Shown here: one piece after another, positions 2,400 through 6,095 of the stretch
Layout: each line of letters opens with the position of its first letter
Position numbering within the stretch: the first letter of the stretch is position 1
Virus record (IMG/VR): IMGVR_UViG_2703718800_000011
DNA from: a virus
Lineage: Duplodnaviria > Heunggongvirae > Uroviricota > Caudoviricetes
Strand: one strand, 5' to 3'
Length of the DNA stretch: 6,095 nucleotides
Translations under genes and position numbers: made by a program
The notes under the pieces: model-generated
What the model saw: the letters and a program-made list of their open reading frames with translations, nothing else
What the model was told of the DNA's origin: nothing
Database searches by the model: none

Positions 2400-2822
2400 T
2401 CAGAAAAGTGGCGGTTGCGTTCTTGCCAGATGCAGACGGCGCTGTTCGCGTATGACGGTATAAATCTGGGTTTCTGACATCCTGTAATGGCGGCGCAGGG
2501 TTTCAATTTTTTCGCCCTGGCTCCAGCGGGAAAAAATCTCATTATTGCGCAGTTCGGTGAAAAGGGATTCACCGACCGGGAGATAATAACCACGCCCGCC
2601 CATGTACCCGGCCTGTGCGGCCGCAACTTTACGGGCAAGCATTCCTGCCTGAGCAGGTTCAATCCCCTGACGGTGCAGTTCAGCACTGATCACATCAACC
2701 AGGTCCCGCAGCGTGCCGGGCCAGTTCTTTTTCAGCTCATCATCAGGAATGTCATCCAGACGGTCAATCAGCGCGTGCAGCTGTTCGCTGTCACCAAACA
2801 TGCTCATCTGTGTTTCAGCCAT
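2400..2822 (-). CDS. Mor/C-family transcriptional activator (Mu middle/late activator homolog)
   Basis: 140 aa. N-terminal acidic region with MFGDSEQLHALIDRLDD; C-terminal GGRGYYLPVGESLFTELRNNEIFSRWSQGEKIETLRRHYRMSETQIYTVIREQRRLHLARTQPPLF matches my recollection of the Mor family (GG..YIP, RN..I...F.G, HTH, and the Mu Mor C-terminus ...RRMRRLKYRQYQPSLL). GGAGG SD 5 nt upstream of ATG 2822; located immediately upstream of the endolysin. Confidence 0.75.
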   Translation of the reverse strand: MAETQMSMFGDSEQLHALIDRLDDIPDDELKKNWPGTLRDLVDVISAELHRQGIEPAQAGMLARKVAAAQAGYMGGRGYYLPVGESLFTELRNNEIFSRWSQGEKIETLRRHYRMSETQIYTVIREQRRLHLARTQPPLF

Positions 2823-2854: not shown

Positions 2855-2888
2855 TTTAAAATAAAAATCCCGCGCTGTGGCGGGATTT
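2855..2888 (-). terminator. Intrinsic terminator hairpin, copy 1 (strong for minus-strand transcripts)
   Basis: AAATCCCGC-gctgtg-GCGGGATTT at 2865..2888: perfect 9 bp stem, 6 nt loop. On the minus-strand RNA the stem is followed by UUUUUAUUUU. Sits 43 nt upstream of the Mor/C-like ATG. Confidence 0.6.
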
Positions 2889-2930
2889 AGAGGCGCTGTA
2901 AATCATAACCCGAAATGAGCTGTGTATTTA

Positions 2931-2959
2931 TTGATCATTTTCCGGTGTAACTATATGAT
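2931..2959 (+). promoter_or_regulatory. Candidate sigma70-type promoter for the plus-strand cargo gene
   Basis: TTGATC (2931..2936), 17 nt spacer, TATGAT (2954..2959) on the plus strand in an AT-rich tract, about 200 nt upstream of ATG 3163. Pattern match only. Confidence 0.3.
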
Positions 2960-3162
2960 AAAGATCGTTTTTATTTTTAAAAATACAAACCCTGAAGGAG
3001 TTTTTCTTATCAAAAAGCTTGTGCATATTGCGGGTTATTGTTGTTTCATCAACATGAAAACCAATTATCCCAACTCTTAAAGCACACCAGGCTTGCTCCA
3101 GTGCAAAAACAAATAATTTCAGTCTGCCTGACAGCGTTCCACCGGAATAAAGGAAGATATCC

Positions 3163-3585
3163 ATGAAACAACCTCCATCTTTGCTTTTATCGTGCCCACC
3201 AGAACTGGCCCATGAACTCAATGATCTGGCGAAAGAGTATAAACTTACAAATCATAATATAGAAGCAGCAACACTTAGTGCTGCCGGAAGCGATATTGTA
3301 TTGATCGTTCTGGCCGCAGCTTCATGCGATGGGTTCTGGCAGGCATTAGCCAGTATGTTTCAGACGTGGTTACATCGTAAACCAACAAAACAAACACCCC
3401 CGGAAAAGAAAGTTATTCGTAGCGTCATTGTTCGTAGCTGGGAACACTATCAGGAGACAACTAAACAAACTGAATTTTATAACTTTGATGCTGATGAGCT
3501 GGCTAAATTGATAGCGTTATATGAAAAACCAGATGAAACAATTGGTTGCATAATCCCGTCAGAAACGGAAATTCAGGAAAAATAA
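3163..3585 (+). CDS. Hypothetical protein encoded by an opposite-strand, AT-rich moron cassette; one predicted hydrophobic helix; family not recognised
   Basis: 140 aa. The only convincing plus-strand ORF in the window. ATG 3163 is preceded by AAGGAAG with a 6 nt spacer. Stop TAA (3583..3585) runs directly into terminator copy 2. Composition is visibly more AT-rich than the flanking phage genes. Hydrophobic segment SDIVLIVLAAASCDGFWQALASMF; C-terminal half charged and acidic. Confidence 0.6.
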   Translation: MKQPPSLLLSCPPELAHELNDLAKEYKLTNHNIEAATLSAAGSDIVLIVLAAASCDGFWQALASMFQTWLHRKPTKQTPPEKKVIRSVIVRSWEHYQETTKQTEFYNFDADELAKLIALYEKPDETIGCIIPSETEIQEK

Positions 3586-3608
3586 AATCCCGCACTGTGG
3601 CGGGATTT
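3575..3608 (-). terminator. Intrinsic terminator hairpin, copy 2 (terminates the minus-strand early operon after the GemA-like gene; also follows the plus-strand cargo gene)
   Basis: AAATCCCGC-actgtg-GCGGGATTT at 3585..3608: 9 bp stem, 6 nt loop. On the minus-strand RNA it is followed by UUUUAUUUUU. Begins 4 nt after the GemA-like stop (3612). Near-identical to copy 1 over about 31 bp. Confidence 0.65.
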
Positions 3609-3611
3609 GGG

Positions 3612-4121
3612 TTAACAGGGGAATGATTTTTCATACAGCCTGCAAACGCGCTCATAACTCATCACTGCACGCTCCGACATATCCAGGGCTGCCAGCATTT
3701 TGCGGCGGTGCCAGCGTTTGAGACGCTCCAGCACATCAGAGGCCAGCTCGGGGTGTTGCTCCAGCCACTGCCAGTTAGCCACACCTTCGCCGCCGTTCTG
3801 CGCGGCCGTCTGCGATTGCACCCAGCGGTTAAGGGCCGTTTCCGCACCATCAGAAATAAAGCCCTGCCGGTGCATCACTTTCCAGATGGCGCGAATTTTG
3901 GCGGTCACCGTACCCGGCTTTAAGGCCCGGTTAACCGGTTTCTGACGCACTTTAAAACCGCGTTTTTTGAAAACATCCAGTACGCGGGATAACTCATCCG
4001 GTGACATATCCCGGCAACTGGCTTTACCGGTGGCTGCCAGCAGTGCGGATGTATAGGTTTCATCATCCAGAGCAAGCTCGCGTTTTGCCACATGAATGGC
4101 AGATATCAGTTTTCCTCTCAT
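3612..4121 (-). CDS. GemA-like protein (Mu gp16 family, DUF1018-type)
   Basis: 169 aa. N-terminus MRGKLISAIHVAKRELALDDETYTSALLAATGKASCRDMSPDELSRVLDVFKKRGF fits my recollection of the gp16/GemA signature (LI..IH.AK..L.LDD..YR.LL...TGK.S..DM...EL..VL). Start overlaps the upstream stop as ATGA. Confidence 0.7.
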   Translation of the reverse strand: MRGKLISAIHVAKRELALDDETYTSALLAATGKASCRDMSPDELSRVLDVFKKRGFKVRQKPVNRALKPGTVTAKIRAIWKVMHRQGFISDGAETALNRWVQSQTAAQNGGEGVANWQWLEQHPELASDVLERLKRWHRRKMLAALDMSERAVMSYERVCRLYEKSFPC

Positions 4122-4429
4122 ACCGTATTTACCTTTTTACGGACATGGAAAGCCTTTTCTGGCTCATTCCACCGGATATGATGCGTTGGCGGAATAATCA
4201 TTATGTGCCAGCCATCTCTGGTTGTTATTCGGCAGAAAAACTCACCGCTGTATAACACAATGGCCTGCTGAATAAGCGCATCCGCAGCCAGCTCAAGCAG
4301 ATATCTTTTATCAAAAAGGCTGATAATTTTCCGGCATAACCACCGGGTGATAACAAATGCGCCGAAAAACGATGTGATATATAAACACCAGAACAGCAGA
4401 GAAATATTGTCCGTTATTTGCTCATCCAT
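4118..4429 (-). CDS. Small membrane protein, unknown function
   Basis: 103 aa with one clear transmembrane segment ISLLFWCLYITSFFGAFVITRWLC. GGGAGA SD 6 nt upstream of ATG 4429. Sequence looks more AT-rich than its neighbours. Translationally coupled at both ends. Confidence 0.55.
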   Translation of the reverse strand: MDEQITDNISLLFWCLYITSFFGAFVITRWLCRKIISLFDKRYLLELAADALIQQAIVLYSGEFFCRITTRDGWHIMIIPPTHHIRWNEPEKAFHVRKKVNTV

Positions 4430-4754
4430 TGTGTATCTCCCGTAATTCCGGTAAAGCCGAAATATGGCACCAGTGCGTCACCTGTCCATCCTCATCTTCA
4501 AGGCAGGCTCCGGTTTCTTCATCAACAAAAAAACCTTCATACCCGATATGGCCGATGCGCAGCTCCTGTCGGTGACCGTACTGAACAATCAGTACAACAG
4601 CCTCCATATCAGGCGGGAAAGCATCATTCAGTGAATGCCAGGGATAACCGCGCAAATCCCCGAAATAAACCCCGGTCAGGGTTCCGCCACAGACCGGCAT
4701 CCCGGCGGCACATACCAGAGGTTCGTCTGATTCAACAAATAAGGTCGTTATCAT
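4422..4754 (-). CDS. Hypothetical acidic protein, unknown function
   Basis: 110 aa (MITTLFVESDEPLVCAAGMPVCGG...FVDEETGACLEDEDGQVTHWCH...). GGGAG SD 8 nt upstream of ATG 4754. ATGA overlap with the upstream gene and 8 nt overlap with the downstream one. Confidence 0.5.
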   Translation of the reverse strand: MITTLFVESDEPLVCAAGMPVCGGTLTGVYFGDLRGYPWHSLNDAFPPDMEAVVLIVQYGHRQELRIGHIGYEGFFVDEETGACLEDEDGQVTHWCHISALPELREIHNG

Positions 4755-5302
4755 GGCGTTAACTCCCGTAATACAGCGTCCCCGGCAGTCCGGCGATGGT
4801 GATAAATAAAATTCACCGTACTCTCGGATAATTCAAATTTCTCGCCTATTTCCCGGAAGGTAAGACGTCGTGGTGATTCAGCATCCCGTAATTCACGAAT
4901 AAGATGAACATCATCGTCAGGTATACGGGTGAAGGGCAGCAATTCTCCGTATTTTTTCATGCTTACGCCAATATATCGCGCCCGATTGTGGACAGAATCC
5001 CGGTCTCGCCCCAGATATTCTCCTATTTGCTTACCGGTCATCGTTCTGGCATTTTTTCGGATAAATTTATCTTCATCATGTTTAAATCTTGGACGTTTGC
5101 ATTTGAGCAACTCCGGGTAAGTACCGCGTAATAAAACAATCCGGTTATGTACACCCCAGAAACTTCTTTTTACCCTGACAGCAATATCCTTAACCGGGGT
5201 GGATGAATAAAGCGCAATCAGCAGCGCATCTTCTTCAGGTGTCCACGGACGGACATGAGCGGGGGCGCGACCTTTTCGCCCCATGGGTTGTAAAATCATC
5301 AT
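4751..5302 (-). CDS. Putative DNA-binding protein with repeated helix-turn-helix-like segments
   Basis: 183 aa. AGGGGGTGA SD upstream of ATG 5302. Contains WTPEEDALLIALY (SANT/Myb-like signature) plus two further HTH-like stretches, MTGKQIGEYLGRDRDSVHNRARYIGV and LTFREIGEKFELSESTVNFIYHHRR. Family not recognised. Confidence 0.55.
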   Translation of the reverse strand: MMILQPMGRKGRAPAHVRPWTPEEDALLIALYSSTPVKDIAVRVKRSFWGVHNRIVLLRGTYPELLKCKRPRFKHDEDKFIRKNARTMTGKQIGEYLGRDRDSVHNRARYIGVSMKKYGELLPFTRIPDDDVHLIRELRDAESPRRLTFREIGEKFELSESTVNFIYHHRRTAGDAVLRELTP

Positions 5303-5305
5303 ACA

Positions 5306-5536
5306 TCACCCCCTGACTCGCTTTTCAGCAGCATAAAACTCATCAGACAGAATTTCGGTCATTTTCTGATTTGCGGGTTTTACGCCGCACTCAAGGTAAA
5401 TCACATCGTCAACGCAGAACCACTTCACAGGGCCAAACATGATTGCCGAGAAATCAATACCCAGCCAGAACAACAGTGCATCGGTTCTGGCATACGTGAC
5501 GGGCGAATATTCACGCCACAGAAAGGTTTTCGCCAT
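5306..5536 (-). CDS. Hypothetical small protein
   Basis: 76 aa (MAKTFLWREYSPVTYARTDALLFWLGIDFSAIMFGPVKWFCVDDVIYLECGVKPANQKMTEILSDEFYAAEKRVRG). Stop lies 4 nt before the next start. Its 5' part overlaps the 104-aa ORF in another frame; weak SD. Confidence 0.45.
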   Translation of the reverse strand: MAKTFLWREYSPVTYARTDALLFWLGIDFSAIMFGPVKWFCVDDVIYLECGVKPANQKMTEILSDEFYAAEKRVRG

Positions 5537-5739
5537 AAGTCGCGATGAAAAGGATATTTGTCATCCATAAAGCGCAGCCCCTTAAAACAAAAGCCACTGA
5601 TACTGAATTCAAATACCGACCGGCACGCAACATTCAGCACGGCCTCAAGGCGTTTCGCCTCATCTTTTACCGTCTGGCAGTCCTGCTGGTATTTTTGCCA
5701 CGCAGCCAGCGCGGCAGGGTTTGATGTTTTAAAGAACAT
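5425..5739 (-). CDS. Hypothetical small protein; 3' extent doubtful
   Basis: 104 aa ORF whose ATG overlaps the upstream stop as TAATG. The N-terminal part (MFFKTSNPAALAAWQKYQQDCQTVKDEAKRLEAVLNVA) looks protein-like; the C-terminal part is Cys/Trp-rich and overlaps the 76-aa ORF, so the real gene may be shorter or frameshifted. Confidence 0.3.
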   Translation of the reverse strand: MFFKTSNPAALAAWQKYQQDCQTVKDEAKRLEAVLNVACRSVFEFSISGFCFKGLRFMDDKYPFHRDLWRKPFCGVNIRPSRMPEPMHCCSGWVLISRQSCLAL

Positions 5740-6095
5740 TACTCTACCTCCGCAGAAATCGCGGCAGGCGCAGCCGTCCGGTCAACAATCAGGTAACGCA
5801 GAACATGTTCGGTGATATTCCAGCCGCTTAAACCGCAGATAATGACGCCCAGGCGAATGTCGATATACGCCATCACAAACTGGGGCACGCCTTCTTTCAT
5901 GGCCTGCTCATCAACTTCAGCCACCACATAAACGGTTTCACAGGTCAGAACGCCCTGAGCAAATTCCCACGCCATCGACGGAATATCATGCCCCTCAATC
6001 CACGGCAGGGATTTTCTGAAGCTGCACCACTGAACATCATCAGCCGCACCTTCCTGGCTGCATTTGCGACGAACCGGCTGCACCGGGCGGGGACG
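5739..6095 (-). CDS. Hypothetical early-region protein; N-terminus probably beyond the window end
   Basis: Frame is open from the window edge (6095) to the stop at 5739. The track's start at 6083 is a GTG, and the first in-frame ATG is further in (MAWEFAQGVLTCETVYVVAEVDEQAMKEGVPQFVMAYIDIRLGVIICGLSGW...), so the true start is unresolved. No family recognised. Confidence 0.45.
   Translation of the reverse strand, partial: RPRPVQPVRRKCSQEGAADDVQWCSFRKSLPWIEGHDIPSMAWEFAQGVLTCETVYVVAEVDEQAMKEGVPQFVMAYIDIRLGVIICGLSGWNITEHVLRYLIVDRTAAPAAISAEVE

Follow-up and report, generated by a model that had tools for sequence, protein, structure and literature searches.

What is encoded by the run of small, tightly packed genes at positions 4118-6095 of this DNA, the whole 6,095-nt stretch of which is called the window here? 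The first-pass annotation described the run as seven overlapping early genes of unknown function, corresponding to the Mu semi-essential early region. Our analysis indicates that the interval probably comes from a Mu-like transposable prophage of E. coli, in which it forms the early operon's promoter-distal part, known as the "semi-essential early region", and holds dispensable accessory genes. Prophages of this type are widespread in E. coli. The block is carried by 232 of 5426 complete E. coli genomes, and the exact proteins are already found, as hypothetical proteins, on 248-603 public contigs. The features of the interval and of its downstream flank are as follows.

3585..3608, minus strand: intrinsic-terminator-like hairpin and T-run (9-bp stem with 5 GC pairs, then TATTTTT)
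3612..4121, minus strand: GemA (gp16) homologue, last gene of the run (Pfam PF06252, 1.3e-29; 47% identical to Mu GemA)
4118..4429, minus strand: 103-aa protein; hydrophobic helix near the N-terminus (residues ~9-27), small C-terminal beta part (phrog_17269, 5e-33)
4422..4754, minus strand: 110-aa acidic protein, pI 4.4, net charge -14, predicted all-beta (phrog_6925, 9.5e-51)
4751..5302, minus strand: predicted 183-aa basic DNA-binding protein, pI 10.1, with three HTH repeats (phrog_323, PDB profile match)
5306..5739, minus strand: Mu gp12 homologue, disrupted (phrog_2314, tblastn, alignment with L002)
5739..6095, minus strand: Mu gp11 homologue, C-terminal 118 codons, cut by the window end (Pfam, PHROG, tblastn)

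Gene content and the disrupted gp12 homologue

The previously listed ORFs of 114, 104, 76, 183, 110 and 103 aa are all present on the minus strand (5739-6083, 5425-5739, 5306-5536, 4751-5302, 4422-4754 and 4118-4429, respectively). The title of the first-pass annotation gave seven genes where six ORFs were counted, and the true number is five because one gene accounts for both the 104-aa ORF (its N-terminal half) and the 76-aa ORF (its C-terminal half). The 114-aa ORF is also only part of a gene: within the window it lacks a genuine start, the frame runs open through base 6095, and the full-length protein of 177 aa is encoded by CDS 10704-11237 in L002, an identical prophage of E. coli STEC2018-607. 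The genes are real rather than chance ORFs, as indicated by their PHROG matches (E-values from 1e-28 to 1e-63), their dN/dS values of 0.01-0.43 (rough pairwise estimates against two relatives) and the annotation of the same CDSs by RefSeq. Moreover, the earlier statement that none of the translations matches a nameable family does not hold, since all five genes fall into PHROG families, the gp11 homologue belongs to PF25754, intact gp12 orthologues belong to PF26885 and the 183-aa protein resembles Myb-like/HTH DNA-binding proteins. The gp11 homologue covers positions 1-78 of the 78-position profile PF25754 Gp11_C (2e-41; 140.6 bits, cut-off 27 bits) and also matches phrog_1949 (8e-63).

The gp12 homologue is split into two ORFs because of an apparent 82-bp deletion at ~5524/5525, which showed as an 82-nt gap in the alignment with L002 and is private to the window among the related sequences examined. 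Both L002 and L012, another copy, are otherwise 99.9-100% identical to the window and encode an intact 171-aa gp12 homologue. The two ORFs match the same family, phrog_2314, at profile positions 2-71 (104 aa) and 100-169 (76 aa), and profile positions ~72-99 correspond to the deleted segment. The 104-aa ORF consists of 71 native residues and a frameshifted tail, and the 76-aa ORF is the native C-terminus starting at an internal ATG; identity to Mu_12 is 47% for the former and 63% for the latter. Intact gp12 orthologues carry PF26885 Phage_Mu_Gp12, and the present split copy does not encode the continuous protein of ~171-176 aa that would span the whole profile (PF26885/phrog_2314). As judged from the sequence, the gp12 homologue is inactivated in this copy by the 82-bp deletion. 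Translation of gp12 now stops 123 nt ahead of the start of the 183-aa gene, and the deletion may weaken translational coupling to that gene in this particular copy.

Both ORFs are open and overlap by 112 nt, as would be expected of two genuine overlapping genes or of one gene with a programmed frameshift. These readings are, however, extremely improbable and were rejected: every related sequence examined, including the two 99.9-100% identical copies, has a single uninterrupted gene of 171-173 aa, and the window differs from the near-identical copies by an 82-bp gap with a scrambled junction of 2-3 nt.

Likeness to the Mu early region

The assignment to the Mu semi-essential early region was borne out by synteny and by the homology of gp11, gp12 and GemA to Mu. 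In L002, the genes follow one another on one strand in the order ner-like, A, B, small genes, Gam, a 180-aa gene, gp11-like, gp12-like, 183, 110, 103 and GemA, with a Mor-family gene on the same strand. GemA lies directly downstream of the ORFs, as had been proposed. Identities to Mu are 61% for gp11, 47-63% for gp12 and 47% for GemA (tblastn). In Mu, gp11-gp15 lie between gam and gemA, and position, strand and the tight packing of small unassigned genes are the same in both phages. In contrast, the place of Mu gp13, gp14 and gp15 is taken here by unrelated genes for proteins of 183, 110 and 103 aa, an extra 180-aa gene lies before gp11 (outside the window), and gp12 is broken in the present copy. 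Indeed, tblastn found no Mu counterpart of the 183-, 110- and 103-aa genes (best E-values 0.066-4.1), and profile-profile comparison of the families in this position did not link the 110- and 103-aa proteins to Mu gp13, gp14 or gp15. We also checked whether all members are homologous to characterised Mu early proteins. They are not, as gp11 and gp12 of Mu are uncharacterised too. Literature searches returned no functional work on Mu gp11, Mu gp12 or the present proteins.

The junctions of the run are, in order, a 1-nt overlap, a 112-nt out-of-frame overlap, a 3-nt gap and overlaps of 4, 8 and 4 nt, the last being an ATGA overlap between the 103-aa gene and GemA; the overlaps of 1 to 8 nt described earlier are thus correct for four of the six junctions but not for the 112-nt overlap or the 3-nt gap. 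GGAG/GGGGG motifs lie upstream of gene starts. No terminator-like site was found on the minus strand within 4118-6095, and an Rfam scan of the window gave no match above chance. The hairpin at 3585..3608, which starts 4 nt past the GemA stop and is found at the same place in an O157 relative, likely marks the end of the transcription unit. The GC content of the block (46-52%) is continuous with that of GemA. A moron-like insertion with 40% GC and duplicated terminators occupies 2858-3608.

A close comparison is with the Mu-like prophages that occur in E. coli O157:H7 and in other STEC strains, which are 91-98% identical in nucleotide sequence gene by gene (~95% for the relatives in O157:H7); Sp18 of strain Sakai is the Mu-like O157 prophage described in the literature (PMC2669165). 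The O157 copies share the backbone of gp11, gp12, the 183-aa gene, homologues of the 110- and 103-aa genes, and GemA. Three additional small genes (116, 110 and 65 aa) separate the 110-aa homologue from the 103-aa homologue there, and the 720-bp insertion after GemA is absent.

Proteins encoded between gp12 and GemA

In related Mu-like phages, cassettes are exchanged in the slot that separates gp12 from GemA: 47 loci, taken from IMG/VR, showed 22 architectures and 31 protein families. A GemA-based scan of genome contigs found no loci. In the window the slot is occupied by the 183-, 110- and 103-aa genes, all three of which are under purifying selection.

The 183-aa protein matches phrog_323, annotated as "transcriptional regulator, D5-like", with an E-value of 5e-58. 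The first two of its three predicted HTH repeats resemble Myb/SANT R2R3, and the family profile matched the PDB structures of MYB3 (3zqc, 3.9e-7) and c-Myb R2R3 (1h88, 3.3e-6). Its Pfam HTH and Myb matches are below threshold (16.5 bits against the 24.4-bit cut-off for Myb PF00249), and its Salmonella homologues carry precomputed PF00249 matches. RefSeq names the protein as AsnC/Lrp family, which looks like a mislabel: an HTH_AsnC-type match is confined to 33 residues near the C-terminus (21.9 bits against a 27-bit cut-off), and Pfam found no AsnC ligand-binding domain. The P2-like Citrobacter phage Shae_phiSM has a full-length, 36% identical homologue in its early operon, among small genes between cox and a replication gene and adjoining an Ead/Ea22-like gene. 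Shae_phiSM is a different type of phage with other neighbours, and this homologue is the only gene in common.

The family of the 110-aa protein, which is probably soluble, is small, with only 13 proteins among 1.8 billion representative proteins in an exhaustive HMMER search with the family profile; one of the 13, a eukaryotic fibronectin-repeat protein, was rejected as spurious. The gene has a dN/dS of 0.01-0.10. The AF2 model is of low confidence (pLDDT 53) and was built on a shallow alignment of 12 sequences. Comparison with the DUF551 region of E. coli YfdS (hhalign probability 65%, E 6e-5) aligned the C-terminal 60 residues of the protein, including the ...VTHW...P-E ending, to that region, and a DUF551-like module at the C-terminus is possible. 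The protein itself has no DUF551 (PF04448) match in Pfam; the best DUF551 score in the family is 15.9 bits, in one distant relative, and all members tested are below the 22-bit cut-off. Weak matches to phrog_924 and phrog_7704 were seen as well. The DUF551 proteins of lambdoid and cryptic prophages (YfdS of E. coli; Ea22 variant 2 of Stx phages) are small early accessory proteins too. DUF551 is a portable domain that also occurs in a dATP/dGTP pyrophosphohydrolase (PMC10834534).

The 103-aa protein has only six relatives. A distant homologue likewise lies directly upstream of GemA in locus L052 (hhalign 84%). Its hydrophobicity peaks at residues 9-27 (Kyte-Doolittle maximum 2.09), and it is predicted to be membrane-anchored via this N-terminal helix. 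The low-confidence AF2 model (pLDDT 58, from a shallow alignment of 5 sequences) has a long N-terminal helix and four strands. Pfam, PHROG, NCBIfam and PADLOC assigned neither this protein nor the 110-aa protein to a functional family, and PDB sequence and profile searches with these two proteins, gp11 and gp12 gave nothing below E ~0.6. A weak PDB match to "gp84" (9zd7, E 1.4) was rejected, as it was gone when the family profile was used.

Proposed roles and significance

By analogy with Mu and from the layout, the block would be transcribed with A, B and gam as one message once the repressor is lifted, and its genes would be translated by termination-reinitiation coupling. The products would be dispensable accessory functions directed at the host and active in the opening minutes of lytic growth. 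The most likely role of the 183-aa protein, and of gp11, would be DNA binding or transcriptional retuning, the acidic 110-aa protein would most likely sequester a host protein, and the 103-aa protein would most likely act at the inner membrane.

Two other readings of the slot genes were weighed against this accessory role. That at least one of the 183-, 110- and 103-aa proteins inhibits host immunity (restriction, abortive infection or signalling-based defence) would fit their location in a fast-turnover early slot and the character of the 110-aa protein, which is small, very acidic and strongly constrained like many known inhibitors; moreover, this slot holds a PF04447 dATP/dGTP pyrophosphohydrolase in Salmonella relatives, and PMC10834534 describes a phage enzyme of this kind as an inhibitor of host restriction enzymes. 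However, acidic charge and variability are non-specific traits of phage early genes, and the proteins show no similarity to characterised proteins in Pfam, NCBIfam, PADLOC, PHROG annotations or the PDB. No known defence or anti-defence relative was found in the PDB, or by PADLOC apart from one homing-endonuclease match of the 183-aa protein (0.02). An anti-defence island is possible but unlikely. The genes might instead be morons expressed from the prophage for lysogenic conversion or superinfection exclusion, with the 103-aa protein as an exclusion factor. Like many exclusion proteins, it carries a single predicted membrane helix at its N-terminus, and the minus strand has two weak promoter-like sites, at 4488-4461 and 4228-4200. 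Such sites are, however, not above expectation (4 found in the block against 5.5 in shuffled sequence), the genes share 4-8 nt with their neighbours on the early strand and lack a terminator of their own, and their GC content equals that of the neighbours, in contrast to the downstream moron-like insertion. The moron reading is very unlikely.

On the accessory reading, the interval is what one would expect at the end of a Mu-type early operon. Its proteins already have entries in public databases and PHROG families, and partly in Pfam. The annotation is corrected in that a single broken gp12 had been listed as two "genes" and one further "gene" is a truncated gp11. It is quite improbable, yet conceivable, that the slot will prove to be an unrecognised exchange point for host-interaction or anti-defence cassettes in enterobacterial Mu-like phages, with the 110- and 103-aa proteins founding new inhibitor families. 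The interval between gp12 and GemA is compact and highly variable, and its proteins are almost entirely uncharacterised. Therefore, it is a reasonable place to screen for host-takeover or anti-defence functions in the Mu-like phages of E. coli and Salmonella.

Source prophage and gene content

The window is a portion of an E. coli Mu-like prophage. IMG/VR contig UViG_2703718870_000005 matches it at 100% in two blocks and shares its end point exactly, the chromosome of E. coli STEC2018-607 is 99.9-100% identical to it, and 'Mu-like phage' insertions annotated within two Stx-converting phages show ~94% identity. Of 5426 complete E. coli genomes, 232 contain the 4118-6095 block. Every gene of the block is carried by the minus strand, where the following ORFs were called:

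5739-6083, minus strand, 114-aa ORF
5425-5739, minus strand, 104-aa ORF
5306-5536, minus strand, 76-aa ORF
4751-5302, minus strand, 183-aa ORF
4422-4754, minus strand, 110-aa ORF
4118-4429, minus strand, 103-aa ORF

The six ORF lengths quoted in the first-pass annotation agree exactly with these calls, but its title announced seven genes against a list of six, and neither count holds, as the block contains five genes (one edge-cut, one broken and three intact). The tight overlaps of 1-8 nt that it described exist at four junctions but not throughout: reading along the strand, neighbours overlap by 1 nt, then out of frame by 112 nt, are 3 nt apart at the third junction, and overlap by 4, 8 and 4 nt at the rest. 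Judged from their sequences, the ORFs of the block are real genes, because they match PHROG families with E-values of 1e-28 to 1e-63, RefSeq has the same CDSs annotated, and dN/dS is 0.01-0.43 for every gene in rough pairwise comparisons with an O157:H7 copy and the Stx-phage-borne copy. In the same comparisons, the 110-aa gene was the most constrained (dN/dS 0.01-0.10, dS ~0.27). The RefSeq annotation of the block contains no CDS on the opposite strand, and purine-rich GGAG/GGGGG motifs precede three of the starts (5302, 4754 and 4429) by 7-12 nt.

The true start of the 114-aa ORF is absent from the window, its frame being still open at base 6095; it covers the last 118 codons of a gene that is 177 aa long in the identical annotated prophage. 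This edge-cut gene is a Mu gp11 homologue (Pfam PF25754 Gp11_C, 2e-41; 61% identity to Mu_11). The 104- and 76-aa ORFs are halves of a single gene: the first matches phrog_2314 at profile positions 2-71 and the second at 100-169, the window lacks 82 nt at ~5524/5525 when aligned with STEC2018-607, to which it is otherwise identical, with 2-3 bases altered at the junction, and an intact 171-aa gp12-type gene is present in all top RefSeq matches as well as in STEC2018-607 and UViG_2703718870_000005. The same gap and intact relatives rule out both two separate genes and a programmed frameshift. The broken gene is a Mu gp12 homologue, its halves being 47% and 63% identical to Mu_12, and intact gp12 orthologues contain PF26885 Phage_Mu_Gp12. 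The 82-bp deletion is either private to the window sequence or an assembly error. In this copy, the stop of the 104-aa fragment lies 123 nt ahead of the 183-aa gene start; because ribosomes on the fragment would halt there, translational coupling to the genes downstream of gp12 may be reduced. The curated Mu record assigns no function to gp11 or gp12, and no relative of either was found in the PDB.

Predicted products of the three intact genes

No counterpart of the 183-, 110- or 103-aa gene was found in the Mu genome, and profile-profile comparison with Mu gp13, gp14 and gp15 detected no distant kinship. The 183-aa protein is basic (pI 10.1), falls in phrog_323 ('transcriptional regulator, D5-like') and contains three HTH-type repeats. 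Across residues 19-111, the family profile matches solved Myb R2R3 domains (3zqc, 3.9e-7; 1h88, 3.3e-6), and the third repeat matches several HTH families, all below threshold. The RefSeq name 'AsnC family protein' given to its close relatives is not supported, as its sole basis is one of these sub-threshold matches (HTH, 33 residues, 21.9 bits vs a 27-bit cut-off), and the AsnC ligand-binding domain was not found in the protein. 'Myb-like/HTH DNA-binding protein' is a better description of the predicted product of 4751-5302. In addition, a P2-like Citrobacter phage encodes a full-length, 36% identical homologue among small early genes, adjoining an Ead/Ea22-like gene, and partial matches to the 183-aa protein fall in DNA-binding portions of mycobacteriophage genes that carry HNH endonuclease or methylase annotations.

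The 110-aa protein is highly acidic (pI 4.4, net charge -14), is predicted with low confidence to be all-beta (pLDDT 53), and is taxonomically narrow: a word-indexed search gave 18 clusters, of which every named one comes from E. coli or Salmonella, and 13 proteins emerged when 1.8 billion representatives were searched exhaustively with the family profile. Against PF04448 (cut-off 22 bits), a distant relative reaches 15.9 bits, relatives weakly match phrog_924 and phrog_7704, and hhalign pairs the protein with E. coli YfdS in its DUF551 region (65% probability, E 6e-5), with a common ...VTHW...P-E ending. These three weak, concordant signs provide a lead to a putative DUF551-like C-terminal module, not an assignment of membership. 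DUF551 has been described as portable and as occurring in prophage proteins of the early region, and was reported in an enzyme of the dATP/dGTP pyrophosphohydrolase kind (PMC10834534).

A hydrophobic N-terminal helix (residues ~9-27) is predicted for the 103-aa protein, along with a small C-terminal part of beta structure. Only six relatives were found, and a distant homologue in a more remote Mu-like phage is equally placed directly 5' of GemA.

Operon layout and the gp12-GemA slot

In the annotated identical prophage, one strand carries a ner-like gene, transposase A, B, six small genes and Gam, followed by the 180-, 177-, 171-, 183-, 110- and 103-aa genes, GemA, a Mor-family gene and then lysis genes. 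This order is the Mu early operon layout with its semi-essential distal part, which bears out the proposed correspondence to the Mu semi-essential early region. No terminator-like sites were seen on the minus strand inside 4118-6095, promoter-like sites are not enriched (4 observed vs 5.5 expected from shuffles), GC content is continuous at 46-52% through the block and GemA, and a good hairpin with a T-run, kept in relatives, follows the GemA stop (3608-3585, minus strand). The layout is compatible with one predicted early message whose genes are translationally coupled, as they are in Mu.

A 720-bp insertion of ~40% GC (2858-3608), missing from the O157 relative, separates the GemA stop from the Mor-family gene. 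It is bounded by a 31-nt direct repeat (2858-2888 and 3578-3608) duplicating the GemA terminator hairpin, and contains two ORFs for which no family matches were found:

3163-3585, plus strand, 140-aa ORF with one hydrophobic segment
2928-3164, minus strand, 78-aa ORF

The insertion looks moron-like and, compared with the 4118-6095 block, is the stronger candidate for a function expressed from the prophage. GemA and the lysozyme gene have only one Mor-family gene between them (2400-2822, minus strand); it is 40% identical to the Mu late activator C and 28% identical to Mor. Mu possesses both Mor and C with gp18-gp20 between them, whereas the window phage has this single gene there; its type may have one activator only, or an altered middle/late switch.

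We surveyed 80 IMG/VR loci encoding GemA relatives together with loci fetched earlier, calling GemA-strand ORFs and clustering their proteins. In the 47 loci anchored by gp12 or gp11, 31 protein families form 22 gene orders between anchor and GemA, and nearly all of these families lack a Pfam match, on which grounds the slot is a cassette-exchange zone of uncharacterised early genes. The 183-110-103 order, common to the window, STEC2018-607 and UViG_2703718870_000005, is the shortest E. coli variant; O157-type copies have three additional genes and other variants add two further small genes. The early regions of IMG/VR loci L029-L033 are hybrids: their 183- and 110-aa genes precede Mu-type gp13 and gp14 and then GemA, which demonstrates that each of the two gene sets recombines as a cassette of its own. 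Salmonella relatives hold a PF04447 dATP/dGTP pyrophosphohydrolase in the slot. In one Salmonella Mu-like prophage (L011), a 356-aa gene of this family (6326-7396 of that locus) directly follows the 110-aa homologue; the DUF551 reported in such an enzyme fits the weak DUF551-like signal of the 110-aa protein. A study of Pseudomonas Mu-like phages reports accessory-gene mosaicism, with which the slot turnover is in keeping (PMC4378225).

Interpretation of the block

The best-supported reading is the ordinary one, that a Mu-type early operon has its accessory, promoter-distal end at 4118-6095. Its genes would be expressed alongside A, B and Gam upon induction or infection; the 183-aa protein, and likewise gp11 with its Gp11_C domain, would bind DNA, the acidic 110-aa protein would bind and sequester a host protein, and the 103-aa protein would act at the inner membrane. 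All would be dispensable, aiding lytic development in particular hosts. An anti-defence role, mainly for the 110-aa protein, is possible, for which position, charge and variability form the whole basis. Morons expressed from the prophage are less likely, because the block is without signals of its own and has the same composition as its neighbours; the clear moron-like insertion just downstream differs in these features.

The block of the early operon is already known: the exact proteins occur on 248-603 public contigs, labelled 'hypothetical protein' or 'AsnC family protein', they fall in existing PHROG families, and this type of region has been familiar since the Mu genome was annotated. The remaining value lies in the corrected annotation and in recognising that uncharacterised early cassettes are pooled in the compact gp12-GemA slot.
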